Assembly (NCBI GenBank): GCA_964413735.1
Contig: CAYPSS010000001.1
Span: forward strand, 56,237-120,236
Reading direction: 5' to 3'
DNA: 64,000 nt
From: an uncultured Gammaproteobacteria bacterium
GTDB lineage: Bacteria; Patescibacteriota; Patescibacteriia; UBA11705
Shown here one piece after another: positions 14,091 to 40,757 of this stretch. Position 1 is the stretch's first letter. Every line of letters begins with the position of its first letter. The notes below the pieces were generated by a model. The model was given only the letters and a program-made list of their open reading frames with translations, did no database searches and was not told where the DNA came from. A program made the translations under genes and the position numbers.

Positions 14091-14095
14091 AAATT

Positions 14096-23554: not shown

Positions 23555-24130
23555 CTATTGATCAATCATTCCTTTTTTCAAGCAATTATTATAATAACAG
23601 TAATCGAAAATATCACGAGAAATCGGAAAAGCGGCAAACAAAATCGCCAACAAGAAGATATGGCTAAACACAAAATCACAAGCACCTAGAAAATTCATTG
23701 ATTCACTTAAGATCATATCAGCCAAAAATGCCAGCCCGAAAATGAAAACTACTTGAATAACAACAAGGGGCAAAACAATTGAATCATTTTTCAAAATCAC
23801 CACCTCATCTTTCATGCTGGAAGAACTAAAAAGCCATTTTTGGGTGTCATACCACCTGGCCCAAATCAAGACAATGGCAATAATCGCAAAAATTGGGAAC
23901 TTTGGCCCCAAATAATAATAATCTGACATTAAATAACCAATCATAACAATCGCTGTCACAACGGTAACACCAAATTGAATCATGGGGTAAAAAGCCCGTT
24001 TGCCTTTTCGCCAACGATAATATTGATAAGAAAAAATGCCCATCAGTAATCCTAAAAAAATATTTAACAAAATCAATAAAATTGGCATTTCGCACCTCAC
24101 TTTTGTAAAGAACCAAAATAAAATTATCAT
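23555..24130 (-). CDS. Multi-TM membrane protein, hypothetical (paralog of 24543..25202)
   Basis: 191 aa; shares YYYLGPKFPIFAIIAIVLIWARWYD-type block with the downstream paralog. Confidence 0.45.
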   Translation of the reverse strand: MIILFWFFTKVRCEMPILLILLNIFLGLLMGIFSYQYYRWRKGKRAFYPMIQFGVTVVTAIVMIGYLMSDYYYLGPKFPIFAIIAIVLIWARWYDTQKWLFSSSSMKDEVVILKNDSIVLPLVVIQVVFIFGLAFLADMILSESMNFLGACDFVFSHIFLLAILFAAFPISRDIFDYCYYNNCLKKGMIDQ

Positions 24131-24139: not shown

Positions 24140-24460
24140 TGATTGTCAATAAAGTGGGTAAGGGAGTAAGCAAGAAAGTTGTAAGTAGTAAGTAAGACAA
24201 GTGTGACGAGTAAGAAAGTAAAAAGTTTTTCCTGTTATTACGAGAGGTTTCACTTTGTGAAACCTCGTGGCAATCTAAAAGAAGTCTTTCCCAAAATTAT
24301 TTTAGATTGCCACGTCGTTCCGTTTCACGGAACTCCTCGCAATGACAGGTGGGGTGGACTGTTTCACAGAACTCCTCACAACGATCCTCTTTGTCTACAA
24401 AACGAGGCGAGCAAACAGGACGTAATTTTCTCACTCTGAACTTGTTTCAGAGTCTGAGTT
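24140..24460. repeat. Modular intergenic repeat block (gtaag-rich block, palindromic block, 29-bp element)
   Basis: Reverse-complement copies of motifs at 21800-22040; ttctcactctgaacttgtttcagagtctg at 24428-24456 identical to 13237-13265. Confidence 0.7.
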
Positions 24461-24542: not shown

Positions 24543-25202
24543 CTATGGGAAGTTCGGCTCATGCTTTTTCTCCTGCAAGTGTTTCTCCAATTTTTGTTGT
24601 GCTAAAAGGAAAACGCGCCATTCAAAAATATTACGCGACAGATCAGGGAACATCATAGCAATGGCCATTGAAAGGGTCGCAAAAGCAATAACAAAGTCAA
24701 TGCTTTTCAGAATACTATCAAACGGATAATCAAATTTTACCCAAACATTATAAACAATCACATTAACCATGGTCCACAGAATAAGAGCAAAACCAATCCG
24801 TAAGAAAATCTTTGTTTTACTCAGGAACAAAAACTCCAACTGCTGACGATCTTTTTCATTTTCAATAATAACTTGATTATTAACCACGGTCATTTTTTTA
24901 TTCAACCAAACCAGACTTTCATAGCGTCTAAGATGAATAAAAATTAAAGCAATCAAAACAGTAAAAATCGACCTTGGGCCAAGATACAAATAATCGGAAT
25001 GAAAATATTCGAAACATAAAAAAGCCGTTATGCAAACAATCTGAACAAACACTGCATCAAACAAGGTTTTTTCACCCTTTTGGTCATGTTTTTTTTTCAA
25101 AGCCGAAGATACAACAATGCCAATCGAAAGAAGAATCACCATACCTAAACGCAAAAGAACCTGATAATTGTCCATCATTGCCCCCTGGTTGTAAAGGAAC
25201 AA
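24543..25202 (-). CDS. Multi-TM membrane protein, hypothetical (paralog of 23555..24130)
   Basis: 219 aa; DYLYLGPRSIFTVLIALIFIHLRRYE block. Confidence 0.45.
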   Translation of the reverse strand: MFLYNQGAMMDNYQVLLRLGMVILLSIGIVVSSALKKKHDQKGEKTLFDAVFVQIVCITAFLCFEYFHSDYLYLGPRSIFTVLIALIFIHLRRYESLVWLNKKMTVVNNQVIIENEKDRQQLEFLFLSKTKIFLRIGFALILWTMVNVIVYNVWVKFDYPFDSILKSIDFVIAFATLSMAIAMMFPDLSRNIFEWRVFLLAQQKLEKHLQEKKHEPNFP

Positions 25203-25220: not shown

Positions 25221-26504
25221 TTATTTCTTGTCAATAGGGATTACCACTTCTTTAGACCTAAAAACCAGCCAGCTCAATGAAAAAAACAACCACCACAAAA
25301 TACTTAAATCATTTTTAAAATACGGCACATCAACAATTCCATGCGTAATAATTACCATCAAGCAACAAATGAGCAATATATATAATGATCGATTATCAGA
25401 ATTTTTCACTTTCCAATAATTGATTAAATATTTGAGAATTAAGAATCCCACAATCAATAACCCCAAAATCCCAATTTCCGTCCAAAAATTCAAAATAAAG
25501 TTATGAGGATATAAATATATTTCCACCACTCCCTTAGCATGATGAAATGGCGCAATGGCCGTTTGATAACCGGAAATTCCCCCACCCCAAATTGGAGAAA
25601 CTTTTAACATTTGAATGGTTTCTTGCCACATTACCAAACGCAAGTTCCCGGAAAAATCCTGGAACAATGCTTTTTCCTGAACCAAACTACCAATGGTCGG
25701 AAAAGCAAAAACCCCCACCATAGCAAGAAAAAGAAAAATCAAAGTGATGATTCGCAATTTTTTGATTAACAAACCAAACAACAAACCACCAATTCCCAGA
25801 GCAACGATCGCCCCCTCACTTTGCGCAAAAAGGATGGCCAGAAAACCGCAAATGGCCACGATTAAGTAATAAATAATTTGGGACCAATATTTTCCCGCTG
25901 ATTTTTCCCAGAGCAAATAAGCTTGGCCGAGAAATAACAAAACCAAAGGCGCCAGATACAAGCCAATGGCATTGGGATAACCATAAACACTGGTCACGCG
26001 ACGCGTTTGTGCTACCGCCCAAAATTCATTGGGAATAAATGCCCCGGTAAACTTTTGATAAATTGCCAAAGCCGATATTCCTAAAATCGATAGCCCTAAA
26101 AATTTCAGGATCAATTGCCAATCATTTCTTGTTTTAATTATATTAATAAAAATAATGAAAAACATAATCGGCTCAATAAAGTAGGCTTTCCAGACTCCCA
26201 GGGCCGCTCGTTTATCAGGTGAATAAAAAATGGCTAAGCTGACAATAATTAACAACAGCAAAATCAACCATTTATAATTTGAATAAGTTAAACGTTGTTT
26301 AGATATTATTTTTTTAATAATAAAAAGAAAAAAGGCCACTAAAATCAATGCTTCAATCAAAGTAAACGGAACATTAAAAATTAAAAATTTAATTCGGTAA
26401 AACGGCAACACCAAAAGAAAAATCGCCAAACCCAAAGCCGGTCGGCGCCAAAACAAAACCCCAAACAGCAAGCTAACAAAAACCAAAATCATTAAATCAA
26501 TCAT
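25221..26504 (-). CDS. O-antigen ligase/polymerase-like (Wzy_C family) membrane protein
   Basis: 427 aa, 10-12 TM helices with large periplasmic loop, layout typical of O-antigen ligase family; 4-bp overlap with flippase gene. Confidence 0.5.
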   Translation of the reverse strand: MIDLMILVFVSLLFGVLFWRRPALGLAIFLLVLPFYRIKFLIFNVPFTLIEALILVAFFLFIIKKIISKQRLTYSNYKWLILLLLIIVSLAIFYSPDKRAALGVWKAYFIEPIMFFIIFINIIKTRNDWQLILKFLGLSILGISALAIYQKFTGAFIPNEFWAVAQTRRVTSVYGYPNAIGLYLAPLVLLFLGQAYLLWEKSAGKYWSQIIYYLIVAICGFLAILFAQSEGAIVALGIGGLLFGLLIKKLRIITLIFLFLAMVGVFAFPTIGSLVQEKALFQDFSGNLRLVMWQETIQMLKVSPIWGGGISGYQTAIAPFHHAKGVVEIYLYPHNFILNFWTEIGILGLLIVGFLILKYLINYWKVKNSDNRSLYILLICCLMVIITHGIVDVPYFKNDLSILWWLFFSLSWLVFRSKEVVIPIDKK

Positions 26505-27931
26505 AAATTATCAATGTTTGGCTTAGATAATTCCTTCCAAAAATCTTTTTTTATGGCTCCAAGTAAATATAGCATTCCAAAATATGTAATCGAAGCCATT
26601 AATAAAACAAATAAAATATGCCAATTGGGCAACAATAAAATTATCCCGACCATTACTAAGCCGGCCAAACAATATTTACCCAAAGCAATAAGACTGGGAA
26701 TAAATTTAGTTTCCCGATAAACCACCACAAAAGTCCAAACCATAATTACTACCTCAGAAAAAACCGTCATCCACGCCGCGCCCCAAAAACCGAACTTGGG
26801 AATAAAAATAAAATATCCAATCAAAGTAATAATACTGGTTGTTAAATAACCCCACATCATTTGTCGTTGCTTGTGCACGGCCAAAACTGCATAGCCAAAT
26901 AAACTGGTGACAAAAATCGCTCCCGAAGCCAGAATTAAAACTTTCAAAATTTCACCGGACATGGCAAAATCTCTGCCCGCCACAAAAACCATTACTTTTT
27001 GGGCCACCAAAAAAGTGCCAAAAACAATCGGCACCGCAAAAAGCATCAGAGAATCAAAGGCCAGTTGCATTAACTTTTTCATTTCCGTTAAATTTTTTTG
27101 CAAAAAATGATTGGTTAAATGAGGCAACACAATCCCCATATAAACGGCTGGCATCATGGTCAAAATATCCACGACCCGATAAGTCGCACCATAAAGCCCG
27201 ACATCCGCTTGCGGTCTAACAAGTGACAAAATAATGGTATCCATTTTCAAATAAATCAAATTAAAACCAATGGACAAAGCAATCGGCCAACTACGTTTGG
27301 CCACCGCCTTCCAAATATCAAAGTCAAACGCCCAACCAAATTCAATGTATTTGCGTGCATAATAGAAAACCACAATCAAATTCACCAAACTGCCAAAAGA
27401 AATGGTCAATAAAATATAAAATAATGACCCGCCAAGCAAGGCAATTACCGCTGTTAAAATTACCAGCACCAACCGGCCCAAAACCTCAGCAATCGTTACT
27501 TCAAACATTTTTAATTTTTTCTGGAAAACCCCGGTCAATACTTGAATAATAGTAATAAAGTAAAAAGAAAATGATGTGGCCAAAACACCCATCTTCACTT
27601 CCGGAGGATAAGGGAAAAACAAAACCACCAAAGGCGCCAACCCAATAAATAGAAACGAAGAGATTACGCGCAAAGTTAAAATATTTTTCAACAATCTCGG
27701 TTCATCTTGTTTTTCATCACTGATCATTTGCACGGTGGTGAGACTCAAACCAAAATCCGCCATAATGCCAAAAAACTGCAAAAAGGCAATTGCGGTAGTG
27801 TAATAACCAAATCCGGTTTGACCCAAATATCGGGTCATTATCGATACCGCCACCAACCCCAGAACTAAACTGATCATTTTGCCGGCAATTTGAATCAAAG
27901 AGTTTTTGGTAATTTTACTGTTAATTGACAT
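26501..27931 (-). CDS. Polysaccharide biosynthesis protein / oligosaccharide flippase (MOP superfamily, Wzx-like)
   Basis: 476 aa, about 12-14 TM helices, N-terminus typical of Polysacc_synt family (SLIQIAGKMISLVLGLVAVSIMTRYLG). Confidence 0.65.
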   Translation of the reverse strand: MSINSKITKNSLIQIAGKMISLVLGLVAVSIMTRYLGQTGFGYYTTAIAFLQFFGIMADFGLSLTTVQMISDEKQDEPRLLKNILTLRVISSFLFIGLAPLVVLFFPYPPEVKMGVLATSFSFYFITIIQVLTGVFQKKLKMFEVTIAEVLGRLVLVILTAVIALLGGSLFYILLTISFGSLVNLIVVFYYARKYIEFGWAFDFDIWKAVAKRSWPIALSIGFNLIYLKMDTIILSLVRPQADVGLYGATYRVVDILTMMPAVYMGIVLPHLTNHFLQKNLTEMKKLMQLAFDSLMLFAVPIVFGTFLVAQKVMVFVAGRDFAMSGEILKVLILASGAIFVTSLFGYAVLAVHKQRQMMWGYLTTSIITLIGYFIFIPKFGFWGAAWMTVFSEVVIMVWTFVVVYRETKFIPSLIALGKYCLAGLVMVGIILLLPNWHILFVLLMASITYFGMLYLLGAIKKDFWKELSKPNIDNL

Positions 27932-28003
27932 AAAATATATTTTGTTTGAAGTTTAATTACTTAAATTTTACCAATTTTTACCAAAAAAAACAAACTTCTG
28001 GGG

Positions 28004-28063
28004 TTGACAATTAAATATAATTGTACTACAATATACTGTTAATGGTTCCCCAAACAGGGAGGG
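28004..28063 (+). promoter_or_regulatory. Canonical sigma70-type promoter TTGACA-17nt-TACAAT plus strong SD AGGGAGGG
   Basis: TTGACA 28004-28009, TACAAT 28027-28032, SD 28056-28063, ATG 28068. Confidence 0.5.
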
Positions 28064-28067
28064 TGCG

Positions 28068-28508
28068 ATGCTGAAGTATATGATGGCAATGGTATTGGGA
28101 TATTTGATCCACAAGCATGGTGATCAGGTTACCAAGTATTGGAACAATCCGGAAGAGCTGGAAAAGTACTTTGAAAAGATCTTGAATGATGAAAAGCTGT
28201 CGGCTTTGAAGGAACGATTTGTGAAGGCTTTCAAGCAGGGAACGGATGCGCTGGAAGCGGAATTCAAGAAGTTCTTGGATGAGATGGCAGCCAAGGCCAC
28301 GGAAACTCCGCCGGAGGAGCCCGCTCCGCCTCCGGCTCCGGTGGTCATGCCCACGGAAAACTGCCAGAAGTGTGGGCAAGAGAATGCCATCGGCTCGCCC
28401 GCTTGTTCCAAGTGCGGTGGTCCGGTGACGTCGATTGCCGAATTGAAGGACATGTTGGAAGAGATCAAGAAGATTCCGCGCAAGCGTGGGCGGAAGCCTC
28501 CCAAGTAA
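28068..28508 (+). CDS. Small GC-rich protein: N-terminal hydrophobic helix, helical region, Pro-rich linker, CxxC-x11-CxxC zinc ribbon, basic AT-hook-like tail (RKRGRKPPK)
   Basis: 146 aa; coding region far GC-richer than genome; strong promoter, SD and terminator; ORFs on opposite strand are GC artefacts. Confidence 0.55.
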   Translation: MLKYMMAMVLGYLIHKHGDQVTKYWNNPEELEKYFEKILNDEKLSALKERFVKAFKQGTDALEAEFKKFLDEMAAKATETPPEEPAPPPAPVVMPTENCQKCGQENAIGSPACSKCGGPVTSIAELKDMLEEIKKIPRKRGRKPPK

Positions 28509-28566
28509 CGAAAAACGGTACGCAATGCGTACCGCTTTTTTGATATAGAAGATTACTCAAAACATT
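28476..28566. repeat. Direct repeat copy A (about 88 bp; 3' end of gene 28068..28508 plus terminator)
   Basis: About 85-90 percent identical to 30202-30292. Confidence 0.75.
28511..28541. terminator. Bidirectional rho-independent terminator (perfect 9-bp stem cggtacgca/tgcgtaccg flanked by A-run and T-run)
   Basis: gaaaaacggtacgcaatgcgtaccgcttttttg; a near-identical copy occurs at 30236-30267. Confidence 0.65.
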
Positions 28567-28601
28567 TAATAATAACTTTTTTTCTTTACTTTTTATTTTT
28601 A

Positions 28602-29060
28602 TTATTCAGTTTTTTGCTTGATCATTTCAGCGGCAGCATAATTAAAAACACCGATAACTGAAGTATCTATTCGTAATTTAGTATTCTGTGAATAATACCA
28701 GAAACACTCATATTTTTTATCAATTTCAATTTGAATATTTTTTTTCATAAAAACATAATTACCAAAACCACCACTATAATGATCAAATAACTTTGAATTT
28801 TTTTCAATCTTTTCTACTGTGGCATTATAAGACTCTTGATCAATAGACACATTAGTTTCATAAGTAATTAAACTATCTTCATTTTCCAACATATAGATAA
28901 TAACTCCACCTTCATTGCCCATAGCACCCAAAGGAGAAATTTCACAGTAAATTACTTTTTCAAGGTCAATGGAATTCAAGTTTTCTGTAGTAATAATTAT
29001 ACTATTTAGAAAAACTATTGGTTCATTTAATACCCCCCTATATACTGTTTTTGGACTCAT
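28602..29060 (-). CDS. Hypothetical protein (152 aa), AT-rich insert cargo
   Basis: Intact ORF inside the repeat-bounded insert; no recognisable motifs. Confidence 0.4.
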   Translation of the reverse strand: MSPKTVYRGVLNEPIVFLNSIIITTENLNSIDLEKVIYCEISPLGAMGNEGGVIIYMLENEDSLITYETNVSIDQESYNATVEKIEKNSKLFDHYSGGFGNYVFMKKNIQIEIDKKYECFWYYSQNTKLRIDTSVIGVFNYAAAEMIKQKTE

Positions 29061-29096
29061 AAATATATATTTTATTTATGGAATGATAGTTATAAA

Positions 29097-29999
29097 TTAT
29101 TTTTTATAAATACTTAAAAAACCACCAAAGTGTTCCTTGTTAAGATCCTTTCCGAAGGATTCGCCAAGTGCAACCAGCTTTTTGTACTCCAATGTGTCTT
29201 GAATATCTTTTTTGCTATAACGAATTTTGTTTAGATCAATGCTTTGTTTTTTGTTGAACTGAAATTCGGAAAATTTGAGTACTGCATTTCTTTTTTTTGT
29301 TATGATCAAAATATATGAGTTAAGCCCAGAACCATAAGAATTTACCTTATTAATTTTTATCTGGAAATTACTGCCGGCTTTTTCTTTAAGAATATTTTTT
29401 AGGTTTAAAATTTTATTTTTTTCATAGATACGCAAACGAGGTAAGGAAATTTTAGACGACCAAAAACCTTCATCTGTTCTGTCTATATTAATTATTGCAC
29501 GACCGTTAACTTTTAGAATTCTAGAAATTTCCGCGATGGCTCCAAGTTTATTTTCAAAAAAATGAAAAGCATTGGTAGAATATACTAGATCTATTGAGTT
29601 GCTTTTAACTGGAATACGCGTGCAGGCGTTGGCATTAAATAGTTTCGGGACAGATAAACCTTTGGTGTTTATATTGAATTCTTTGGCTATAATAAGAGGA
29701 TTTTTTCTCGCATCCTCCTGTCGTTTTTCTTCATTGTAAAAAATACTTCCTTTCCTTGGTTTTCTGCAAAAATAAATGCCAAACAAAGCTAAACTAACAT
29801 CGTTTTTTGAAAAAATACTACTTAATTCCCATAAAGATCGTCCAACGCCTGAACCTAAATCTAAAATAGATATTTTTTTATTGATCTTTATTTTATTGTC
29901 GATTTCTTTAACCAAATTATAGGATAGAATTTTTTCTACAGTTTTTAATGGACGGCTTATGCTAGGGTGGCTTTTTGTTGGTGGTTTTTCCATATTCAT
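29097..29999 (-). CDS. Class I SAM-dependent methyltransferase
   Basis: 300 aa; motif I ILDLGSGVGRSLWEL, post-II/III region IDLVYSTNAFHFF...ISRILKVNGRAIIN. Confidence 0.65.
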   Translation of the reverse strand: MNMEKPPTKSHPSISRPLKTVEKILSYNLVKEIDNKIKINKKISILDLGSGVGRSLWELSSIFSKNDVSLALFGIYFCRKPRKGSIFYNEEKRQEDARKNPLIIAKEFNINTKGLSVPKLFNANACTRIPVKSNSIDLVYSTNAFHFFENKLGAIAEISRILKVNGRAIINIDRTDEGFWSSKISLPRLRIYEKNKILNLKNILKEKAGSNFQIKINKVNSYGSGLNSYILIITKKRNAVLKFSEFQFNKKQSIDLNKIRYSKKDIQDTLEYKKLVALGESFGKDLNKEHFGGFLSIYKK

Positions 30000-30201
30000 A
30001 ATGTTTTTAATTAAATTATTAACTTGATTAAATCATATCACAAGTTATATTCAATATAAAATAAATTTTAAACTTTCTTTTTATGTTTTTGGTAATCACT
30101 TAGAAAAACACAATAAAATACTTAATATGGTTTAGTTAACTATTTACGCTATGCCATATTAAGAAAAAGGCGTCTATATTGCTTGTGTATAATTTAGTTA
30201 T

Positions 30202-30292
30202 CCCGCACAAGCGTGGGCGGAAGAGTCCCAAGTAACGAAAAACGGTACGCAACGCGTACCGCTTTTTTAATAGAAGAGCTTATTCAAAATGT
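30202..30292. repeat. Direct repeat copy B (degenerate duplicate of gene 28068..28508 3' end and terminator)
   Basis: Retains coding remnant ...PHKRGRKSPK-stop and the cggtacgcaacgcgtaccg hairpin. Confidence 0.75.
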
Positions 30293-30708
30293 TCTATAGT
30301 AATTTTATTCAAATCACCATTAATAATAATCGGCTTCACTGCTTCAATTTCAGTTTTGCAATAAGGCATTTCAGGAATGGGGTTTAACATAAATATTTTT
30401 TGATTCAGAACATGGGCAAAGCCAATTTCCATTAGAGTATTTCCACCAACATAATTTTTTATCCCATTCTTATCAAAATTTAATACCAGCACCGCATCAG
30501 CCCCTTGCATCATTCTCCAAAATTCACGGATAGCGTCCATGTTATTCTTTTGGTGAAGTTTAATAGTTTCAATTTCCTCCTCGGTTTTTCCCACCATTGT
30601 TTTGTGCAAGTCCGTCAAAAAGGCCTCGTGTCCCAATTCCCGAAGTTTTTCGCGGTACTCCAGCATTTGATCTGTAAATTGCATTGATCCAATTATTCCT
30701 ATTCGCAT
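30280..30708 (-). CDS. Nucleoside 2-deoxyribosyltransferase-like protein (PF05014-like Rossmann fold)
   Basis: 142 aa; MRIGIIGSM N-terminus and ADAVLVLNFDKNG...GGNTLMEIGFAHVLNQKIFML matching the D-x-GT-x-E-hGYA catalytic-glutamate block of the NDT family. Confidence 0.45.
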   Translation of the reverse strand: MRIGIIGSMQFTDQMLEYREKLRELGHEAFLTDLHKTMVGKTEEEIETIKLHQKNNMDAIREFWRMMQGADAVLVLNFDKNGIKNYVGGNTLMEIGFAHVLNQKIFMLNPIPEMPYCKTEIEAVKPIIINGDLNKITIEHFE

Positions 30709-30936
30709 AAGAAAGATTTTAAAAAATTTGTAATTTCGCGTAATGTTTTGGTGTATCTAATGTTTCGCGAAGTGTAGGCAAATTTTTGCCTTTTATTTAT
30801 TTTCTTCGATAAATATTATGATTATTTAGTTTCCCAGATTATTCACAAAAATCTGCTTATTTTTATTTAATTTTCCCCCATTTTTGGCGAAGGGTAGAGG
30901 GGTTAGGGATGAATGCCCCGAAGCCAAGACTCCTTA

Positions 30937-31698
30937 TTATAATCTGTTCATCTGATTCAATATTTCATTCGCGAGATCTCGTTTGTCTATTAAATATTCG
31001 TCCCATTTGTTTGATTCTTTTCTCTTTCGTCCGGCAACAAACCCAAGCATTTTTTCGCCTTGTAATTTGTTAGACAATTTCAAAAAATCAGGCGCAGGCA
31101 CAAACCAAACATAATCCCATAAATCGCCTTGCTCTGTATCAAAAAAGCAAAACACCAAAGCCATTGAATATCTATCAACCACACTACTGGCTTTTGCTGT
31201 GGCGGTAAAAATATCGTCAGGGTTATCGCCAAAACGACTTTTGATTTGAATATACATTGTTTTCAAACTTTCTTTTCTTTTCACGATTAAATCAATGCCT
31301 TCGTCATCGGAAATCGGTTTGTAGCAAGAAAGAGTTGTATCGCCGTAAAGTGTAACGAGCTCGGCGATTCTGGCTTCGGCAATGTCTCCTTTTTGTTTTG
31401 AAGAAACATCTTTGGAAATTGTGTATTTCTTTTCTTCTTTTTCCGCTTCTTTTGCTTTTTCTGGTTCTTTGTAGTCGGGATTTAAACCAAAAGTGCTTGG
31501 GGCAGTTTTGATAAATCGAGATTTATCTTTTTTGGAATTTATATCAACGACAAGCTGGGCGTTCATGGTCGCTTCGGGTGTTTTTCCGGCGGTTTTTAGC
31601 CAGCCATGATCCAGCGCAATTTTTGTGATTTCTTTGCTGTGAAGTGGTTTGCTGGCTTCTTTTAAAATTTGATATGCAAGTTCTTTGAATGAGTTCAT
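30937..31698 (-). CDS. HARE-HTH (winged helix) N-terminal domain fused to restriction-endonuclease-like (PD-D/ExK) C-terminal domain
   Basis: 253 aa; N-terminus ELAYQILKEASKPLHSKEITKIALDHGW...RFIKTAPSTFGLNP typical of HARE-HTH; C-terminal D-x(n)-GIDLIVKRK-like D/E-x-K block. Confidence 0.45.
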   Translation of the reverse strand: MNSFKELAYQILKEASKPLHSKEITKIALDHGWLKTAGKTPEATMNAQLVVDINSKKDKSRFIKTAPSTFGLNPDYKEPEKAKEAEKEEKKYTISKDVSSKQKGDIAEARIAELVTLYGDTTLSCYKPISDDEGIDLIVKRKESLKTMYIQIKSRFGDNPDDIFTATAKASSVVDRYSMALVFCFFDTEQGDLWDYVWFVPAPDFLKLSNKLQGEKMLGFVAGRKRKESNKWDEYLIDKRDLANEILNQMNRL

Positions 31699-31699
31699 A

Positions 31700-31857
31700 T
31701 TATTTTTGATAACATTCTATGCAAAGTTTGGTTTGATTTTTGTTTAAACTCGCCAAAAACCGATCCTCGCAAAAATATTCTTCACCTTTAGGAATAATTT
31801 TTTTGCACTTCGTGCAAACGTATTCTTTTCTAGCTTTTTTCTTGACTAAATCCATAT
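31700..31857 (-). CDS. Small zinc-ribbon protein (52 aa; CxxC...C...CxxC), not in supplied ORF track
   Basis: MDLVKKKARKEYVCTKCKKIIPKGEEYFCEDRFLASLNKNQTKLCIECYQK read from minus strand; sits between Res gene and HARE-HTH gene. Confidence 0.35.
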
Positions 31858-34617
31858 TTATTTTAGTAATTGATCGGTAAAGACTTCTTCAAACTTAACT
31901 TCTTCTTTTCTGTTAAACAATGGCAATCCAATCAACGAATATTTTTTACTTTCAGCTTTTAATAAATCGCCAGTCCCGTATTTATCAGTAATTTGCTGTA
32001 AAAATTCTTCTTTCCAGCCCTCCTTGCTTTCTTTAAAACCACCTTCTTTATCAGCAAATTGACCGCCTTTTGGTTCAATAAAAATTTGGTAATAAAGGTT
32101 GTTTTTGTTTCCTTTCAAAAACAACAAAAAGTCCGGCTCAAAACCACGACCTTGCTCAAAGTCATAAATTTTATAAACCTCTTCGTTTCTAAGTAAATAT
32201 ACTTCTTGATATTGTTCTTCCAAATTTCCTATTTTCTTTTTCATAAACTCAAGCAACTCTCTTTCTTCGCTTGTTCCATTAAACCCATTTAGCACATACC
32301 AATTATGCTGTAATAGTTCAGTCTCAAGATTTTTGCTTTCCGGATCAATAAGCACGCTTTTTTCTTTTTCTTCACCAAATAAATCTTCAAAAGAAAAAGA
32401 CTCAAATTTTTCCGTTCCTTTGTGTGGATTGGCAATCTCTTTTAATTTCTTTGTAAATACTTCAAAAAATACAAGCAGCAAGTTTAATTTTTCCTCATTA
32501 CTAATATCATCTAAGCTATTTTTATCTTTTGAAGTAATTATATTGATTTTAAAATTACCAAGAAAATCGCTTGAGAAAATATCATCAACACTATTTAAGC
32601 TTAATTCGGTCTGTAAATTATCAAAACGCAGAAGCGAAAGATCTTTTGTAGCTTTTTTGTTTATGGCTTTGGCTACGATATGTTTTTCAAAATCGCTAAA
32701 TTTTACTGATATTGTTTTCTTATCTTTTTGTTTGCTTTCAGCAAGTAATTCATCTGTGTCTTTGTCTAAAACAACTTGCTGTTCTTTCATTATGAATTCG
32801 CTTGTCGTAAATTCAAAAACAAAATCTTTAGCCAATTCAGCTAAGGTTAATTTTCTTCTTTCCGGATTGTCTATTCTTTCATTTTTCCAAACCTTAATTT
32901 CCTTAAAAAAACCGCTTTGTTTAAAATCTTCCTTTAAGGCAAACTTCTTTATTGTACGGTTATCTTGAATAAACCCTTTATTTTTAAGTTCTCGTTTTAA
33001 TTCATCAAGATAGCGAACGTCATCGTCGCTGTGATAATAAAATTCTTCCAATACTCTCATTGGATTTTCTAAATCGTTATCAAATTTCCGTTTGTTTCTC
33101 TCGTATTCGTTATGATTAAAAGGAAAGTATCTAACTCCGCGTCCAATAAGCTGGATTTCTTGCAGGGTGGCTTGCCCCGCAACTCTTTGCCCGTTTTGGT
33201 GACCTTCATCACGGCCTTCATAAAGCCGAACAATATCAAAAAGATTAAGCACGTCCCAGCCCTCAGTTAAGCGCTTAACGGTAAAAATAGCTCGTATATG
33301 GTTATTTTTATCTTCTAAACTATTTAGTAATTGCTCTTGTTCTTCTGTGGTTTTTTCTTTCGTGGTGGCTTTGTTATCTTTTGAGTTGGTTATAATACAG
33401 TTTCTTTCAGAAAATTCGTCTTTGATGTAATTAACAATATCTCTTATGTTTATCTTTTCGGCTTTAATAAATCCTAGCATTTGTTTAACACGACTTTTGC
33501 CTTGTTCATACACCTTGAATAAACTTGCTTGATCTTCCTTAATACTATTCTCGACATTCTTTAAAAAGGCAAAATCAGTGGCTTGCAAATCAGCGATTAG
33601 TGCTAAAAAATACTCATAATCATTTTTTGATTCTTCAATCAGCTTACTACGAAACAACATTACTGGTTTAAAATTGGCGATATTATTTTTAAGCGCAATT
33701 TGGTGACGATACCAATTAAAAAGCAATGCGAGCAATATTTTTTCTTTTTTATTAAGTGATGTAGAAACTAAGTTTATTTCTTTTGTATATCCGGCTTTTA
33801 GAAAGTCAACGAGCTCAAATTTATAGATAGTTTTTGTCCTGTATTTTTCAACAACGTCGGCATTTTTTGGTATTGTGGCCGTAAATTCAAGCAAAACATT
33901 TCTATTTTCACTATCTTGTGTCTTTTTCCCTTTTCTTAAAATTTTATTTAAGACGGTATTTTCCCAGCTTTTTTCAACATCCTTTTCACTAGCGTTTTCT
34001 TTCAATTCTAAAGGCAAATCCATTTCCTCCTGACCATTTCGTATGGTTGAAGCGTTAAGGTGGTGCGCTTCATCGCCAATCATTACCAAATCTCGCTTTT
34101 GCAATTCACCAAGCGTCACTGAGTTTTCTTTTGCTAAATAAACTGCGTTATGAAGTTTATGAATAGAAGTAAATTTTATCTGTATGTCATCAGTATCATC
34201 AAAAGTTTCTACTTTGCGGATATTGATCGTCTTATCTTCAACGACTATATTTTGACGGAATTCGTATTTTGTATGTATTTTGTTGATAAAGTTGTTTTCC
34301 GTCTTATCAACGATATTGTTTTGATTTACAAAAAATATAAAATGTCGATAACCTTTTTTGTAGTAATACAAAATTAAAGCCGCCATCATCATGGTTTTGC
34401 CCGTTCCGGTTGCCATGTTAAACATCAAATGCGTTGGATCGTTTATATTTTCAACAAATTTTTCTTTTCTTTTCTCAAAAATATCAAAATATTGCATGGC
34501 ATCTTTTTGCCAATACCAAAAATCGTGCTTCAAATTGCTTTTAATATAATCCGGCACTTCATAAGATTCACCAGCAATATCAAGATATGTTTTAATCTTT
34601 TGAAATAATTCTTCCAT
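31858..34617 (-). CDS. res: Type III restriction-modification system endonuclease/helicase subunit (Res)
   Basis: 919 aa; SF2 helicase motifs ATGTGKT (Walker A), IGDEAHH (DEAH), C-terminal endonuclease region; stop/start coupled to Mod. Confidence 0.85.
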   Translation of the reverse strand: MEELFQKIKTYLDIAGESYEVPDYIKSNLKHDFWYWQKDAMQYFDIFEKRKEKFVENINDPTHLMFNMATGTGKTMMMAALILYYYKKGYRHFIFFVNQNNIVDKTENNFINKIHTKYEFRQNIVVEDKTINIRKVETFDDTDDIQIKFTSIHKLHNAVYLAKENSVTLGELQKRDLVMIGDEAHHLNASTIRNGQEEMDLPLELKENASEKDVEKSWENTVLNKILRKGKKTQDSENRNVLLEFTATIPKNADVVEKYRTKTIYKFELVDFLKAGYTKEINLVSTSLNKKEKILLALLFNWYRHQIALKNNIANFKPVMLFRSKLIEESKNDYEYFLALIADLQATDFAFLKNVENSIKEDQASLFKVYEQGKSRVKQMLGFIKAEKINIRDIVNYIKDEFSERNCIITNSKDNKATTKEKTTEEQEQLLNSLEDKNNHIRAIFTVKRLTEGWDVLNLFDIVRLYEGRDEGHQNGQRVAGQATLQEIQLIGRGVRYFPFNHNEYERNKRKFDNDLENPMRVLEEFYYHSDDDVRYLDELKRELKNKGFIQDNRTIKKFALKEDFKQSGFFKEIKVWKNERIDNPERRKLTLAELAKDFVFEFTTSEFIMKEQQVVLDKDTDELLAESKQKDKKTISVKFSDFEKHIVAKAINKKATKDLSLLRFDNLQTELSLNSVDDIFSSDFLGNFKINIITSKDKNSLDDISNEEKLNLLLVFFEVFTKKLKEIANPHKGTEKFESFSFEDLFGEEKEKSVLIDPESKNLETELLQHNWYVLNGFNGTSEERELLEFMKKKIGNLEEQYQEVYLLRNEEVYKIYDFEQGRGFEPDFLLFLKGNKNNLYYQIFIEPKGGQFADKEGGFKESKEGWKEEFLQQITDKYGTGDLLKAESKKYSLIGLPLFNRKEEVKFEEVFTDQLLK

Positions 34618-34619
34618 AT

Positions 34620-36686
34620 CTATTTTTTGGTATTATAAAATTCTTCACTTAAAGCAATATCTTCTTTGGATAGGTTATATTTTTTGTCCGCACGTTCACT
34701 GAAATTGACATATATTTGATTCATATCAAGCATTTCCACAAACAATTTTTTCTGCTCATTTAAACTAAGCTTTTTAAATCCTTCTTCCTTGATTGTCTTT
34801 TCATTAAATTCTTTTGTTTTGACATTGTAGTTGAAGAAATATCGTTCATAGAGTTCGTCAAAAAGTTTTTCAAGTTCACTTAAACTTTTTGCTTTTAATA
34901 TTTTTTCCTTTGCTTCCTCGTTCCATTTTGCGAGTTCTACGGAAATAAAATTACCGCCACCGTTCCAATTAATCCTTTCTGATATTCCAGTACTATCACC
35001 TTTTAATACATTATTTAATCTAGTTATACTATCATCTTCCCCATAATCTAATTGTTCTATTCCTATATACTGAAAACCTAGCTTGTGAGCAACTGCACAG
35101 GTAGTTCCGGATCCCAAATGATAATCTAAAATAATATCATTATCCGAAAGCCCTAACTTTACAATTCTATCAATAAGCTCTTCGGGTTTTTTTCCACTTT
35201 TAAAACTGACATCTCCTTCAATATCTAGCCTTCCCCATGAGATATCTGTCCATAAGGATCCTATCTCTTCTAATTTATATACCTGACCATCTGCTTTTTT
35301 CGCACTATCCGCAAACCAAACAACTAGAGTTTTATTCCAAATATATTTATTAACTAATTTCCCTTTATCTCGGCCACTTTTAGGTATATATTCATAAGAA
35401 ACTAATTTGTTTTTTCCTTTTATAATTCCATTAATTTTATCCAGAAGAGATGTTTGTGCATTAGTTACCATAAAAATCTTGTCAAAATACTTTTCATAAA
35501 CATCATTGACCGATAAATTTTCATTTTTAATTAAATTATTTACAGTTTCAAAATTGAACTCTGTATGCTCAAATACTTTAATACCATCAATTTCAGTAAT
35601 TAATTTTCTCTTTCCTGCATCCATTAATACTCTTGTATAATAAAAACCAACGCTCTCCTCTTTATGCTTTCTAATATAATCTTCAATAATTGTAGCGTTA
35701 TAAATTGGCTGATAATCGAAGAAATCTTTATTTTTACAATAAAACAAAATAAACTCGCTGTTCTTTTTCATTTTCTTATCTTCACCACCACCGCTGGCAC
35801 CCGAACTAGCTTTAGCTTTAACTGTTATCGTATTTACATAATTTGATGAATGAAAAATATCATCAAGTAAGACCTTTAAGTACGCCAATCCCTCATCAGA
35901 TATTTGAATAAATATCATTCCATCATTTGTTAATAAATCTCTAGCTATTTTTAATCTATCTTTCATAAAAACTAACCAAGTAGAAAGTTTGAAATTTGTA
36001 TTATATGCGAAACTATCACTTGTTTTATTCCCAGTAAAATAATACGGTGGATCAATATAAATTAACTTCACTTTTCCTGTAAATTGCTCCTTAAGGGAAT
36101 GAAGGGCAAGAAGATTATTGCCTTTGATTATTAAATTTTCACGGATTGTGCCGTCTTTGTCGCGTTTTAATTCTTTTACTTTTTCCTCACCTTTAGTGGT
36201 ATATCTCTTCCAATTTACCAAGGCTTTTGGATCTTCGAGTCGGTCAATTTCATCTTTGGCCAAAACTTCATTGAAAAATATTTCATTTCTCTTTTGATCT
36301 TCTTTTGTCATTCCACCTTCAAGCACACAATCTTTGAATGGCCAGTCTAAAACGACCTCATTTCTTTCGGAAAGTAGTTGATTGCCAACTCGAAGTCCGA
36401 TTTTGTTTTGGTATTGTGTGTATGAATTGTCAAGTTTGTTTTCATCAATAAAAAACTTTAATTCATTTTGCTTGAGGACAACAACATCTTTAATTTTGAT
36501 AAAAAATTTCTCTTTTGCTTCTTTATCGCTCAACAGAATTTCAATAAGTTTTTCATCAAGCTTGTCGACCAAATCTTTCAAAAGTGTTTCGTTAAACTCT
36601 TTCGTTTCTTCATTCCACAAACGAGCATCCTTTTTAAGTAAGCCGTATAGTTTAGTTTTAAAATTTTCCATAGTATTTGATTTCAT
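34620..36686 (-). CDS. mod: Type III restriction-modification system DNA methyltransferase subunit (Mod), N6-adenine/N4-cytosine class
   Basis: 688 aa; catalytic motif IV LIYIDPPY, SAM-binding DYHLGSGTT region. Confidence 0.85.
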   Translation of the reverse strand: MKSNTMENFKTKLYGLLKKDARLWNEETKEFNETLLKDLVDKLDEKLIEILLSDKEAKEKFFIKIKDVVVLKQNELKFFIDENKLDNSYTQYQNKIGLRVGNQLLSERNEVVLDWPFKDCVLEGGMTKEDQKRNEIFFNEVLAKDEIDRLEDPKALVNWKRYTTKGEEKVKELKRDKDGTIRENLIIKGNNLLALHSLKEQFTGKVKLIYIDPPYYFTGNKTSDSFAYNTNFKLSTWLVFMKDRLKIARDLLTNDGMIFIQISDEGLAYLKVLLDDIFHSSNYVNTITVKAKASSGASGGGEDKKMKKNSEFILFYCKNKDFFDYQPIYNATIIEDYIRKHKEESVGFYYTRVLMDAGKRKLITEIDGIKVFEHTEFNFETVNNLIKNENLSVNDVYEKYFDKIFMVTNAQTSLLDKINGIIKGKNKLVSYEYIPKSGRDKGKLVNKYIWNKTLVVWFADSAKKADGQVYKLEEIGSLWTDISWGRLDIEGDVSFKSGKKPEELIDRIVKLGLSDNDIILDYHLGSGTTCAVAHKLGFQYIGIEQLDYGEDDSITRLNNVLKGDSTGISERINWNGGGNFISVELAKWNEEAKEKILKAKSLSELEKLFDELYERYFFNYNVKTKEFNEKTIKEEGFKKLSLNEQKKLFVEMLDMNQIYVNFSERADKKYNLSKEDIALSEEFYNTKK

Positions 36687-36920: not shown

Positions 36921-37184
36921 TCACTTCACCGGATCATTCCCACCCTTACTCCACGGATTACACCTCATAATCCGCCAAATCGCCTTAACCCCACCCACAA
37001 TCACCCCATATTTCTCAATCGCCTGATACCCATATTGGGAACAAGTGGGATGAAAACGACAAAAACCATACGGATACCAGGATTTTAAGGGACCGTGGTC
37101 CGGCGATAAGGTTTTCTGATAAATTTTGATTAATTTCAAGACCAGAAAACGCGGATAAAATTTAAAAGTGTTGAATATTTTCAT
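36921..37184 (-). CDS. yidD: Membrane protein insertion efficiency factor YidD
   Basis: 87 aa; LIKIYQKTLSPDHGP...CRFHPTCSQYGYQAIEKYG signature. Confidence 0.85.
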   Translation of the reverse strand: MKIFNTFKFYPRFLVLKLIKIYQKTLSPDHGPLKSWYPYGFCRFHPTCSQYGYQAIEKYGVIVGGVKAIWRIMRCNPWSKGGNDPVK

Positions 37185-37535
37185 TTATTTCACTATTCTT
37201 TTTAATAAAGTTTCTAAATTTCCCTTAATTTGGTCAAATTCCAAAGTTTTGGCTTTTGGTTGCACGACCACCAAAACATCAAAACCCGCCAATGTGGTAA
37301 TTTTTTCTTTGAAAATCTCTCTGATTTGCCGTTTCAATCGATTTCGCACCACCGCTCGATTATCCACCTTGGTATTGATAATAATCCCTAAGCGAAAATT
37401 CGTCTTATCTCCTCTTAATACTTTAATAACAAAAAACGGATCCGAAGCTGATAACCCCTTTTTTAATTTGAAACTTTTACCGAAAAATTCGTCAATTTCC
37501 TTTTTCTTGTTAATGCGATTCTTTGCTTTTAACAT
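37185..37535 (-). CDS. rnpA: Ribonuclease P protein component
   Basis: 116 aa; RLGIIINTKVDNRAVVRNRLKRQIRE conserved RNR motif region; immediately downstream of rpmH. Confidence 0.85.
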   Translation of the reverse strand: MLKAKNRINKKKEIDEFFGKSFKLKKGLSASDPFFVIKVLRGDKTNFRLGIIINTKVDNRAVVRNRLKRQIREIFKEKITTLAGFDVLVVVQPKAKTLEFDQIKGNLETLLKRIVK

Positions 37536-37563
37536 ATATATAATGATACCAAGTTTTATAATT

Positions 37564-37588
37564 CAAAAAAAGTCCCTGGCCGGGACTT
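37564..37588 (-). terminator. Hairpin terminator/attenuator between rpmH and rnpA
   Basis: agtccctggccgggact palindrome with adjacent A/T runs. Confidence 0.4.
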
Positions 37589-37592
37589 TCTT

Positions 37593-37739
37593 TTATCTAT
37601 CAGATGTAGTTAAACTTTTGCGACCGCGAACTCGTCGTCGTTTCAACACTTTGCGGCCGTTTTTCGTACTCATCCGTTCTAAAAAACCGTGTTTCTTGGC
37701 TTTCTTTCTTTTATTTGGCTGATAAGTTCGTTTTGGCAT
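37593..37739 (-). CDS. rpmH: 50S ribosomal protein L34
   Basis: 48 aa [48 protein letters not shown] read on minus strand; absent from the ORF track (shorter than 60 aa); classic rpmH-rnpA-yidD order. Confidence 0.9.
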
Positions 37740-37986
37740 AAAAAAAATTTAATATGAGATTAAGAACATAATACCTTATTATCATTATAATGTCAATAGA
37801 AAGGAATTAAGACACCCAAGCCCCTTGTCAAAAAAATTTTAGGTGTGCTAAAATGGAAAACGAGAGTTATCAACAAGTTATTAACACAATACCAACTTTT
37901 CATTGCTTTACGACAGTTTATCCACAATTGTGTTCGTGTTAAAATAGCATTAAGTTAAATTAAATTAAAAATAAAATACTTTATCT
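37740..37986. promoter_or_regulatory. oriC-proximal region upstream of dnaA with DnaA boxes
   Basis: Perfect DnaA box TTATCCACA at 37918-37926; TTATCAACA at 37867-37875; AT-rich; located between rpmH and dnaA. Confidence 0.6.
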
Positions 37987-39378
37987 ATGGAAGATCGCAA
38001 TCAAGCTCTATGGAACGCCGTGTTGGCGGAAATGGAACTTAGCCTTAGTAAAGCCAGTTTTACCACTTGGCTGAAAAACACTTTTATAGTAAAGAACGAA
38101 GATGGCCGAATTGTTATCGGTGTGCCCAACACCTTTTCTCAGGCCTGGCTCAAACAAAAATACCACCAAAACATTTACAAGATTATCCAAGACAAAAGCG
38201 ACGAACGCATCAAGGAAATCATTTATCGGGTGCAAACCTTGAAAAACTACAAAGAAGAAGTGGAACAATTCAAGAAAAATGCGGTTAAAGAAGCTTGTTT
38301 GGACAGCATCCAAGCCAAACCAACCATTATTGAACCAACTTTTTCCGAAAATAACGGTTTAAACAACAAATATACTTTTGACAGTTTTATTGTGGGCAAA
38401 AACAATGAACTGGCCCACGCCGCCGCTAAGGCCGTGGCCCAAAATCCGGGTTTTACTTATAATCCGCTTTTTATTTATGGCGGAGTGGGACTGGGGAAAA
38501 CCCACTTATCCCAAGCCATTGGTAATGAGGTGACCAGAAATAATCCCAGTAAGAAAATTTTGTATGTTACTTGTGAACAATTTACCAATGATTTTATTTC
38601 TTCCATTCAAAGTGGCGCTCCCGAGAAATTTACCAAGGTTTATCGCACCGCTGATGTACTTATTATTGATGATATCCAATTTTTGACCGGTAAAGAAGGC
38701 ACGCAAGAAGCATTTTTTCATACCTTTAATGATTTACATCAGAAAAACAAACAAATTGTTATTACCTCGGATCGTCCACCCAAAGCCATTGCCACACTGG
38801 AAGATCGTTTATTGTCCCGTTTTGAATGGGGTATGATTGCTGATATTTCACAGCCGGACCTGGAAACCAGAATTGCGATTTTGGAAACCAAATGCAGGGA
38901 AAAAGAGTTTAATTTGGAAAGAGAGATCATCCAATACATTACTATGAATATCCAAAACAATGTCCGCGAATTGGAAGGCGCTTTGAATAAAATTATTGCT
39001 TATTATCAATTGAACAATATTTCTCCCACCATGGAAAATGTCAAAAATATTCTATTTTCCATTTCTTCTTCCAGTCGAAAAAACGATTCTGTCACCATTA
39101 AAAAAGTTTTGGAAACCATCAGCACTTTTTATGAAATTTCCACCGATGAAATTACCGGCAAAAGCCGTGAAAAGCGTTATGCCTTGCCTCGTCAAATTAT
39201 TATGTTTTTAATGCGCGAAGAATTAGGATACTCCTATCCAACAATTGGCGCAGAAATCGGTGGCCGAGATCATACCACCGCGATGCATGCTTATTCGAAA
39301 ATCAGTCGTCAAATAGAAAATGACGAAAAACTCCGCCAAGAATTAAATCTCTTGAAACAACGACTTTATTCTTGTTAA
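37987..39378 (+). CDS. dnaA: Chromosomal replication initiator protein DnaA
   Basis: 463 aa; Walker A GGVGLGKTHL, sensor motifs, C-terminal DNA-binding domain (RDHTTAMHA). Confidence 0.95.
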   Translation: MEDRNQALWNAVLAEMELSLSKASFTTWLKNTFIVKNEDGRIVIGVPNTFSQAWLKQKYHQNIYKIIQDKSDERIKEIIYRVQTLKNYKEEVEQFKKNAVKEACLDSIQAKPTIIEPTFSENNGLNNKYTFDSFIVGKNNELAHAAAKAVAQNPGFTYNPLFIYGGVGLGKTHLSQAIGNEVTRNNPSKKILYVTCEQFTNDFISSIQSGAPEKFTKVYRTADVLIIDDIQFLTGKEGTQEAFFHTFNDLHQKNKQIVITSDRPPKAIATLEDRLLSRFEWGMIADISQPDLETRIAILETKCREKEFNLEREIIQYITMNIQNNVRELEGALNKIIAYYQLNNISPTMENVKNILFSISSSSRKNDSVTIKKVLETISTFYEISTDEITGKSREKRYALPRQIIMFLMREELGYSYPTIGAEIGGRDHTTAMHAYSKISRQIENDEKLRQELNLLKQRLYSC

Positions 39379-39638
39379 TAAAATGTGAACAACTGATAAT
39401 TTTTCGTTTATAAGTTTGGGATTAATCAGAACCCAATGTGCACAAAAAAACAGAAAATAACAACAATATTTATTTTTGCTCATTCACCAACAAGGAGTAA
39501 ACAATGATAATAACAAGTGGTGTTAATAGAATTTCCGCTAATTTAAGAAAGGAAAAGCACTTATCCCAATTATCAACACTATTATTATTGTTATTTCTTA
39601 TATATATATTGTGTTTTAATTAATATAATAGGCCTTCT
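39379..39638. promoter_or_regulatory. dnaA-dnaN intergenic AT-rich region with DnaA-box-like sites (possible DUE / second oriC half)
   Basis: TTATCCCAA 39561-39569 and TTATCAACA 39571-39579; long A/T tract 39590-39640. Confidence 0.4.
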
Positions 39639-40757
39639 ATGAAAATAACTTGTACCCAAGAAAATCTCAATCAAGGATTAAACATTACCGGTCATTTGGT
39701 AAATAAAAGTGTTAATCTCCCAATCTTAAACAATCTTTTAATTGAAGCCAAAGAAGGTCAAATTAAATTACTTTCCACTAATTTGGAAATCGGGATCAGT
39801 ACTTTGATCCGAGGAAAAATTGAACAACAAGGAGTGTTTACCGTTGATTCAAAACTTTTGGCTGATTATGTGTCTTTGCTACCAAAAGATAATGTGGAAA
39901 TGGAATTGGTCAAAGATGATTTTCTAAATGTTAAATGCAAAAATAATAATACCAGAATAAAGGGTATCCCGGCGGATGATTTTCCCGTTATTCCGGAAAT
40001 TGAAAAAAAAGATCCTTTTGTTGTTTCCATTAAAGAGCTCAAAATGGCGATCTCTCAAGTTTTGTTTGCGGTTTCCAATAATGATACTCGACCGGAGATT
40101 AGTGGCGTTTTGATGGCATTTGGGGACAATAAATTGATTTTGGTTGGGACCGACAGTTATCGTTTAGCGGAAAAGAAAATTTCCGCTTCTGGCTCCAGTA
40201 AACAAATGCAAGTGATTGTCCCGTTAAAAACTTTGCAAGAGTTGTTGCGTATTTTAAGTGCCATGAAGGAAGATTCGGAATTGGAAAATCTGGATATTTA
40301 TATTTCCGATAATCAAATTTTGTTTGTCATTGATGGTATTGAAATGATTTCTCGTTTGGTTGAGGGAAATTATCCGGATTACAAACAAATTATTCCAACC
40401 GACGCTAAAACTAAAACCGAGGTTAATACCAATGAGTTTGTCAAAATCATTAAAACCACTGCTTTGTTTTCCAAGGTGGGGATCTTTGATATTAAATTGG
40501 AATTTTTACCGGAAAACAAAAGTATTGTTGTTTCTTCCAATAATATTCAGGTTGGTGAAAGTGTTTCCGAGTTGGAAGTTGGATTTTCCGGCGAAAAAAA
40601 CAACACGACTTTAAACTATCGATTTTTGATTGATGGTTTATCAAACATTGGGAGCAGTGAAATTACCTTAGACGTAATTGATAATAATGTCCCTTGTGTG
40701 ATGAAGCCTAAGGGCGATGATAGCTATTTGTATATTATTATGCCGATCAAACAATAG
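39639..40757 (+). CDS. dnaN: DNA polymerase III beta subunit (sliding clamp)
   Basis: 372 aa; three-domain clamp layout, N-terminus MKITCTQENLNQGL, follows dnaA. Confidence 0.9.
   Translation: MKITCTQENLNQGLNITGHLVNKSVNLPILNNLLIEAKEGQIKLLSTNLEIGISTLIRGKIEQQGVFTVDSKLLADYVSLLPKDNVEMELVKDDFLNVKCKNNNTRIKGIPADDFPVIPEIEKKDPFVVSIKELKMAISQVLFAVSNNDTRPEISGVLMAFGDNKLILVGTDSYRLAEKKISASGSSKQMQVIVPLKTLQELLRILSAMKEDSELENLDIYISDNQILFVIDGIEMISRLVEGNYPDYKQIIPTDAKTKTEVNTNEFVKIIKTTALFSKVGIFDIKLEFLPENKSIVVSSNNIQVGESVSELEVGFSGEKNNTTLNYRFLIDGLSNIGSSEITLDVIDNNVPCVMKPKGDDSYLYIIMPIKQ

Follow-up and report, generated by a model that had tools for sequence, protein, structure and literature searches.

Foreign DNA bounded by direct repeats, or exchanged between conserved flanks, is familiar in bacteria from variable accessory and defence hotspots, from integrative elements that target the 3' ends of genes, from integron cassettes, and from Campbell-type or homology-facilitated insertion during natural transformation. 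Here we compare with these systems a locus in a 64,000-nucleotide (nt) stretch of contig CAYPSS010000001.1 (assembly GCA_964413735.1), referred to as the window. The DNA of the window is chromosomal and comes from a Patescibacteria-type genome; its guanine plus cytosine (GC) content is 35.7%, and its closest protein relatives carry Patescibacteria names. Within the locus, two cargo genes, one for a 152-aa protein and one for a class I S-adenosylmethionine (SAM)-dependent methyltransferase, are enclosed by two copies of a direct repeat. A zinc-ribbon gene lies to the left of the insert, and a 142-aa gene whose product has a predicted nucleoside 2-deoxyribosyltransferase (NDT)-like fold faces it from the right. 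With a probability of roughly 0.6, we read the repeat as a relic target duplication that bounds a strain-variable accessory/defence slot, the alleles of which are exchanged by homologous recombination.

Variable accessory and defence hotspots share several features with this slot. The flanks are conserved while sister strains carry alternative cargo, in this case a SoFic-like Fic gene versus the methyltransferase and a protein of unknown function; the neighbours include type III restriction-modification (R-M) genes and a HARE-HTH/PD-(D/E)XK gene; GC content falls below that of the rest of the genome; and recombination tracts are mosaic. However, the present slot is very small (1-1.6 kb), is bounded by a target-junction duplication of approximately 110 nt instead of by two different core genes, and is located in a Patescibacteria-type genome some 8-10 kb from dnaA.

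The attL/attR sites of integrative elements that target 3' ends, such as tRNA-targeting islands, likewise place direct repeats around foreign DNA and leave the target gene intact, with its displaced 3' end beyond the insert. In contrast to such elements, no integrase was found in the insert or in the window open reading frames (ORFs) scanned, the repeat includes the end of the opposite gene as well, the insert consists of two small genes, and the copies are only 84-91% identical. Integron cassettes resemble the locus in that the cargo is small, exchangeable and without a recombinase, in that the methyltransferase family is bounded by attC sites elsewhere, and in that the repeat has a hairpin. 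Yet the hairpin is an ordinary terminator with a perfect stem and lacks the R''/L''/L'/R' organisation of attC, a lineage-specific attC model is unmatched, and neither an integron integrase nor an array was found in the window ORFs scanned. Insertion by Campbell-type or homology-facilitated recombination would leave the same order of parts as seen here (intact gene, donor junction, cargo, recipient junction), and recombination proteins, RuvB and RuvC, are encoded in the window. At this locus, for which no empty site was found in the collections searched, such an event would be a candidate origin.

A duplicated convergent-gene junction

In pairwise alignment, positions 28473-28582 (copy A) and 30200-30309 (copy B), both on the plus strand, match without gaps at a constant offset of 1727 nt, with 92 of 110 nucleotides identical (84%; BLAST E value of 2e-29 against the whole window). 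An earlier note on this DNA, made from the sequence alone, had already placed a direct repeat around the insert, and the alignment confirms it while carrying its right end about 20 nt further. Identity reaches 91% over the 5' 69 nt (ATYCCGC...CGCTTTTTT) and drops to 71% over the final 41 nt. The left edge is sharp, similarity beginning at ATT/ATC CCG with random-level identity upstream. All other direct repeats reported by the repeat finder in 24-40 kb were at most 41 nt in length, with identities of about 70%.

Copy A comprises the terminal 11 codons of the zinc-ribbon gene (28068-28508, plus strand), a predicted bidirectional terminator and, on the minus strand, a pseudo-end that corresponds to the final 8 codons of the 142-aa gene (28553-28576, V-I-I-K-C-F-E-stop). 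Copy B comprises an in-frame remnant of the zinc-ribbon end (30203-30235, P-H-K-R-G-R-K-S-P-K-stop), present as the earlier note had recognised, followed by a second predicted bidirectional terminator and by the true end of the 142-aa gene (gene at 30280-30708, minus strand; end at 30280-30303, I-T-I-E-H-F-E-stop). Because the pseudo-end in copy A lies in the same register as the true end, it is the complete junction of the two convergent genes that was apparently duplicated. That the repeat is made up of both flanking genes' ends thus argues for a duplicated target rather than a site borne by an element.

The hairpins at 28516-28534 (copy A) and 30243-30261 (copy B) each have an 8-bp GC-rich stem (6 GC pairs), a 3-nt loop, five A residues on the 5' side and six T residues on the 3' side. 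Both fold as predicted terminators on either strand (-14 to -18.5 kcal/mol, z scores of -3.6 to -5.6). Each thus offers, on both strands, the GC-rich stem-loop and U tract of a putative intrinsic bidirectional terminator, so that folding bears out the terminators proposed previously. Within the 64 kb, a hairpin with these A and T tracts occurs at the two sites only, with 0 expected. A scan of metagenomes with the bare hairpin returned five contigs from unrelated organisms of 42-63% GC, and similarity was confined to the hairpin, which indicates a generic terminator that is uninformative about this locus. The coding portion of the repeat gave 0 matches in genome, metagenome and viral collections, the full 110-nt unit not having been scanned. 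What recurs at unrelated loci, a possibility the earlier note had raised for the repeat as a whole, is therefore the bare hairpin and not the coding portion.

A repeat that contains a gene end might also be explained if copy B were the decayed 3' end of a second, tandem zinc-ribbon paralogue, the cargo lying between two ancient paralogues with no duplication linked to an insertion. The remnant in copy B does end at the same stop codon, and codon 144 of the zinc-ribbon gene is polymorphic, encoding P, N or S among the strain alleles and the remnant. However, the similarity starts abruptly at ATYCCGC where that of a decaying paralogue would fade gradually, a zinc-ribbon paralogue could not have supplied the in-register NDT-fold pseudo-end of copy A, and repeat searches found no similarity to the body of the zinc-ribbon gene elsewhere in 28583-30199. 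We consider this origin distinctly improbable. The polymorphism at codon 144 could also stem from gene conversion between the two repeat copies.

Strain comparison and mosaic divergence

Strains were compared using two short metagenome-assembled Logan contigs (1.9 and 1.2 kb), L001, from a sister strain, and L002. L001 matches the window at 27719-28545 and 30105-30223, and between these flanks it carries 990 bp with a 315-aa Fic gene in place of the 152-aa gene and the methyltransferase. The Fic protein matches SoFic in PADLOC over nearly its full length (E value of 1e-38). L002 carries the window allele, in that the contig extends beyond copy A to include the 3' end of the 152-aa gene. The window and L002 on the one side and L001 on the other therefore have alternative gene content between conserved flanks, as is characteristic of variable hotspots. 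Since a Fic gene occupies the same position between the same flanks, the segment at 28546-30104, bounded by the points where homology to L001 breaks (28545 and 30105), can be regarded as an exchangeable allele. Cluster look-ups yielded three further strain variants of the zinc-ribbon gene, two of which are on Logan contigs (13,175 and 2,146 bp) that also carry the methyltransferase cluster, as judged from cluster content. The third variant is on a contig of 3,332 bp that lacks a methyltransferase of this cluster.

Divergence among the strains is arranged in blocks. Between the window and L001 the 5' end of the flippase gene (27719-27918) is approximately 17% divergent, 27919-28418 shows 8 differences in 500 nt, and 28419-28518 is 19% divergent. 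Between the window and L002, divergence is about 1.6% in the flippase region (27466-27965), about 13% in 27966-28415 and about 4% in 28416-28696. A breakpoint near 28416 is common to both comparisons and is located within the zinc-ribbon gene, about 55 nt outside the repeat, which suggests that a block extending from the final ~90 nt of the gene through the terminator and the cargo is moved as a unit. As judged from these alignments, the block-wise divergence points to exchange of cargo by homologous recombination and not to a fixed site-specific crossover. The earlier note's alternative proposal, recombination between the terminator copies, comes close to what the mosaics suggest.

At its right end the variable DNA is delimited by the repeats; at its left end the limit is inexact. 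Copy A of L001 ends directly after the terminator, while that of the window runs on for about 30 nt more. Over a 74-nt core counted by hand, copy A of L001 has 7 differences from copy B of the window, versus 10 and an indel from copy A of the window.

The leader next to copy B

A 95-nt leader (30105-30199), immediately preceding copy B, is common to the window and the Fic-carrying L001, with 53 nt identical. It contains a 10-bp perfect inverted repeat, CTTAATATGG...CCATATTAAG (30121-30163), with a U-rich run after it on the minus strand, and the start codon of the L001 Fic gene lies within about 13 nt of the leader. A search of Rfam gave no match in 27900-30950, leader included, at an E value of 1 or less, and a leader pattern gave 0 matches in viral contigs. 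The leader might be an operator, an attenuator or the promoter region of the cargo.

Cargo genes and their relatives in integron-type cassettes

The 152-aa gene (28602-29060, minus strand) belongs to an uncharacterised domain family with the motifs GAMGNxGG, YETN and GGxGN, the domain occurring standalone or fused to FtsK, receiver, OGFr_N and other domains. The protein has no Pfam match, and its confident structural model has no clear structural relative, the best being a weak LytTR-like match. A diverged GNAT acetyltransferase, the neighbour of the methyltransferase elsewhere, was considered for this gene and rejected, as no similarity was found.

The 300-aa methyltransferase (29097-29999, minus strand; Methyltransf_11) matches only generic class I SAM families in Pfam (Methyltransf_11, 25, 31, 12 and 23). 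No DNA-methylase domain (N6_N4_Mtase, MethyltransfD12 or C5 DNA_methylase) was detected in the Pfam scan, and NCBIfam matches to BioC, ArsM and UbiE fall far under their cut-offs. In PADLOC the methyltransferase matched mad2 weakly, in its generic methyltransferase part (E value of 3e-8), and the 152-aa protein gave no match. At 27.7% GC for the 152-aa gene and 30.6% for the methyltransferase, the insert is AT-richer than the window, so the earlier description of an AT-rich insert with a hypothetical gene and a class I SAM methyltransferase holds.

Relatives of the methyltransferase are found in cassette arrays. The coding sequence (29093-29994) is 88% identical at the nucleotide level to contigs L006 and L007 and 84% identical to L008 and L009, and the homology to L006 and L008, which are unrelated Patescibacteria contigs, stops at the ends of the coding sequence; the protein is 71% identical to a methyltransferase in L010-L012. 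These relatives are located in same-strand arrays whose genes are separated by canonical attC-like sites, and they adjoin GNAT acetyltransferase or ArsB genes. The family is thus bounded by attC sites in three other Patescibacteria contexts. With no DNA-methylase domain, and with relatives beside GNAT or ArsB genes instead of R-M systems, the idea that the insertion had delivered a methyltransferase into the neighbouring R-M island finds no footing.

The pairing of the Patescibacteria attC sites is backed by compensatory changes in 8 of 11 long-helix pairs. A covariance model was built from five such sites, in which 96% of pair positions are standard pairs. With this model nothing in the window scored above 10.8 bits, the repeat hairpins reached 6.7 and 4.4 bits, and true sites scored 68-97 bits; a pattern scan of 28400-30400 for attC likewise returned none. 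As the model finds no site in the window, the methyltransferase would come from the cassette pool but would not be held here as a cassette. A candidate for a miniature remnant of attC (ATATAACTTG...CAAGTTAATA, approximately 30020-30053), located upstream of the methyltransferase and picked by eye, was unsupported by the model.

Some of the related loci have features of their own. In L006 (European Nucleotide Archive ERZ1292638, NODE_28), 7313-10897 holds a recombinase followed by same-strand cassettes separated by attC sites. The recombinase is Xer-like or integron-integrase-like (NCBIfam XerA/integron integrase, 226 bits), and its match skips the middle of the integron-integrase profiles. In L008 (GCA_041739085.1, JBGSON010000024.1), the cassettes at 9560-11606 directly follow two tRNA genes. 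L010, a Patescibacteria contig, has an integron-type cassette array at 3154-5073. A long inverted repeat in this array, AATACTGTCATTGCGAG...CTCGCAATGACAGTATT (4012-4160), which separates the methyltransferase gene from an attC site, is a possible non-autonomous element of small size.

Mobile-element machinery and site-specific alternatives

Integrase, recombinase and transposase domains were absent by Pfam from the cargo and from the 50 window ORFs scanned, with 47808-52409 and the small paralogues at 12692-14937 unscanned, and the cargo of L001 is a single Fic gene without a recombinase. The repeat finder detected no terminal inverted repeats at the ends of the insert, the only inverted repeat near them being weak (70% complementarity) and internal. 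The earlier note had called the repeats the footprint of an insertion, in the form of an att duplication by an integrative element. The footprint itself, that is, exchangeable inserted DNA, is upheld by the Fic allele of L001 and by a methyltransferase homology restricted to the coding sequence; the integrative element is not, there being no integrase, recombinase or transposase in the ORFs scanned, no attC site, and a repeat built of two genes' ends.

An insert flanked by direct repeats of purely target sequence would be accounted for by a transposon or similar element with a long target-site duplication. However, we know of no bacterial transposon family that makes target duplications of about 100 bp, no transposase domain or terminal inverted repeat was seen in the searches above, and the duplication, of 110 nt, is 84% identical, not identical. 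Among the explanations weighed here, this is the least probable.

It is also conceivable, although unlikely, that the locus belongs to a cassette system that lacks its own integrase, in which the hairpin repeat of about 75-110 nt, perhaps together with the leader, is an att-like site for a recombinase encoded elsewhere in the genome. Circular molecules of cargo, leader and site would then enter and leave by site-specific recombination, as is the case for integrons or cis-mobilisable elements. Two unrelated cargos do occupy exactly one slot, to the right of which leader and repeat are shared, both are in the same orientation and free of a recombinase, the methyltransferase occurs as a genuine attC cassette in other Patescibacteria, the inverted repeat of the leader could bind a protein, and copy A of L001 is slightly nearer to copy B than to copy A of the window. 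It is the conservation of the leader beside two unrelated cargos that keeps this reading alive. Yet no recombinase was found among the window ORFs scanned, the repeat fails the attC model and is built, like a target duplication, from the coding ends of both chromosomal neighbours, the extent of copy A differs between alleles, the common breakpoint falls outside the repeat and within a gene, and the window has two copies only, with the coding portion of the repeat absent from the collections searched.

A related proposal, less probable again, is that the hairpin repeat and the 95-nt leader form the recombination site of an unrecognised Patescibacteria cassette-exchange platform, whose recombinase lies elsewhere and which installs genes from the integron pool behind a fixed leader, beside the zinc-ribbon/AT-hook-like gene. 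The trans-mobilised cassette system, the decayed paralogue and the long-duplication transposon are all less well supported than target duplication.

Proposed origin of the duplication and exchange of alleles

Under target duplication, foreign DNA would have entered the convergent junction of the zinc-ribbon and NDT-fold genes and duplicated the whole junction (approximately 105-110 nt: 11 codons, terminator and 8 codons). The original event may have been a Campbell-type single-crossover integration of junction-carrying DNA, or an insertion, either illegitimate or with one-sided homology, that overlapped the target. Homology-facilitated illegitimate recombination is described as an established insertion route in transformable bacteria (PMC3240628). 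The duplication would predate the split of the sampled strains. The present alleles, the 152-aa gene with the methyltransferase or the SoFic-like Fic gene, would since have been swapped between co-existing strains by ordinary homologous recombination, with the final ~90 nt of the zinc-ribbon gene together with copy A as the left homology arm and the leader plus copy B as the right. Copy A would terminate the zinc-ribbon gene and the cargo operon, and copy B the NDT-fold gene, both by way of predicted terminators. The cargo would derive from the mobile gene pool of the Patescibacteria, the methyltransferase having lost at this locus the attC sites that bound it elsewhere.

Several points tell against this account. 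No empty site, in which the zinc-ribbon gene directly faces the NDT-fold gene, was found in the collections searched, and for that reason the primary insertion can only be inferred. Campbell-type integration needs a donor that already bore a copy of the junction, and for the illegitimate route one or two events that were not observed would have to be assumed. The persistence of the leader beside two unrelated cargos is accommodated by homologous exchange but not explained by it. For the cargo of the window the only match to a defence model is the weak, generic one to mad2. Finally, L001 and L002 could be strain chimeras, although, even if they are, identical blocks beside blocks of 13-19% divergence in one population imply recombination.

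Flanking genes

The orphan zinc-ribbon gene, which encodes 146 aa, is preceded by a sigma-70-like promoter on the plus strand (28004-28032, TTGACA-17-TACAAT, 11/12 match) and by a GGAGG ribosome-binding site upstream of its ATG. The protein gives weak Zn_Ribbon matches under the Pfam cut-off and ends in a basic tail, RKRGRKPPK, that is AT-hook-like. With 51.9% GC versus 35.7% for the window the gene is anomalously GC-rich, its substitutions are biased to the third codon position, and among 5.8 billion proteins its homologues occur only in two 90%-identity clusters (5 and 1 sequences), within this strain group. Antisense ORFs across the gene were rejected because they fit the substitution pattern less well.

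The 142-aa protein has no Pfam match. Its structural model (pLDDT, the predicted local distance difference test, of 81) best matches NDT 6evs (E value of 5.5e-5, template modelling score of 0.61), with further NDT, DNPH1 and BcmB structures among the top matches, so that an NDT-like fold is predicted, at fold level only, in agreement with the label that the earlier note gave to the gene. The protein has 2,798 homologues, of which the best 120 listed are 80-91% identical. The names of the top matches come from very different Patescibacteria lineages and the contexts are unrelated, including a phage-like contig, L005; for a small gene of accessory appearance, such conservation or mobility is unusually high. 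A C-terminal extension of five residues (IEHFE), encoded in copy B, is found in the window copy only. Relatives of the NDT-fold gene (86-91% identical) proved unusable as synteny anchors, since they sit in unrelated contexts (a NUDIX neighbour, the phage-like contig). The flippase gene, used as an anchor in representative genomes, gave one match at 45% identity and no syntenic relative. In exact look-ups, the zinc-ribbon, NDT-fold and HARE-HTH proteins and a 100%-identical methyltransferase were not on record.

Genomic context

To the left of the locus are genes for a Wzx flippase and a Wzy-like protein (25221-27931). To the right are the HARE-HTH/PD-(D/E)XK gene (30937-31698), type III Res and Mod genes (31858-36686, with the genuine Mod at 34620-36686), and dnaA and dnaN (37987-40757). 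The HARE-HTH/PD-(D/E)XK gene and a 51-aa cysteine-rich ORF (together 30937-31855) are directly upstream of Res and Mod in the same orientation and could have accessory roles in the R-M system. The cumulative GC skew levels off immediately upstream of dnaA and dnaN (37000-40757), and from this and the position of the two genes the R-M island and the variable slot can be placed about 10 kb or less from the likely origin of replication.

Further from the locus, a perfect 15-bp inverted repeat, CTCGTGGCAATCTAAAA...TTTTAGATTGCCACG (24257-24323), is located between ORFs 23555-24130 and 24543-25202; it was picked by a crude attC-like scan and not recovered by the attC model. Six small ORFs of 124-142 aa are found at 12263-14937, and both of those scanned (12263-12658 and 14096-14524) match T4SS_pilin. 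The run is followed by a gene for a 510-aa protein with a C-terminal T4SS_pilin domain (15012-16544).

Significance

The locus adds, from a lineage that is poorly sampled, a new example of known genome plasticity; otherwise it is ordinary. If our reading is true, it would provide a base-resolved example of strain-level turnover of accessory and defence genes in uncultivated, small-genome Patescibacteria, in which a tiny slot near the origin, bounded by a duplicated terminator junction, is swapped by homologous recombination and partly stocked from the phylum's pool of integron-type cassettes. The case shows that a direct repeat around foreign DNA need not mean an integrase-driven element.

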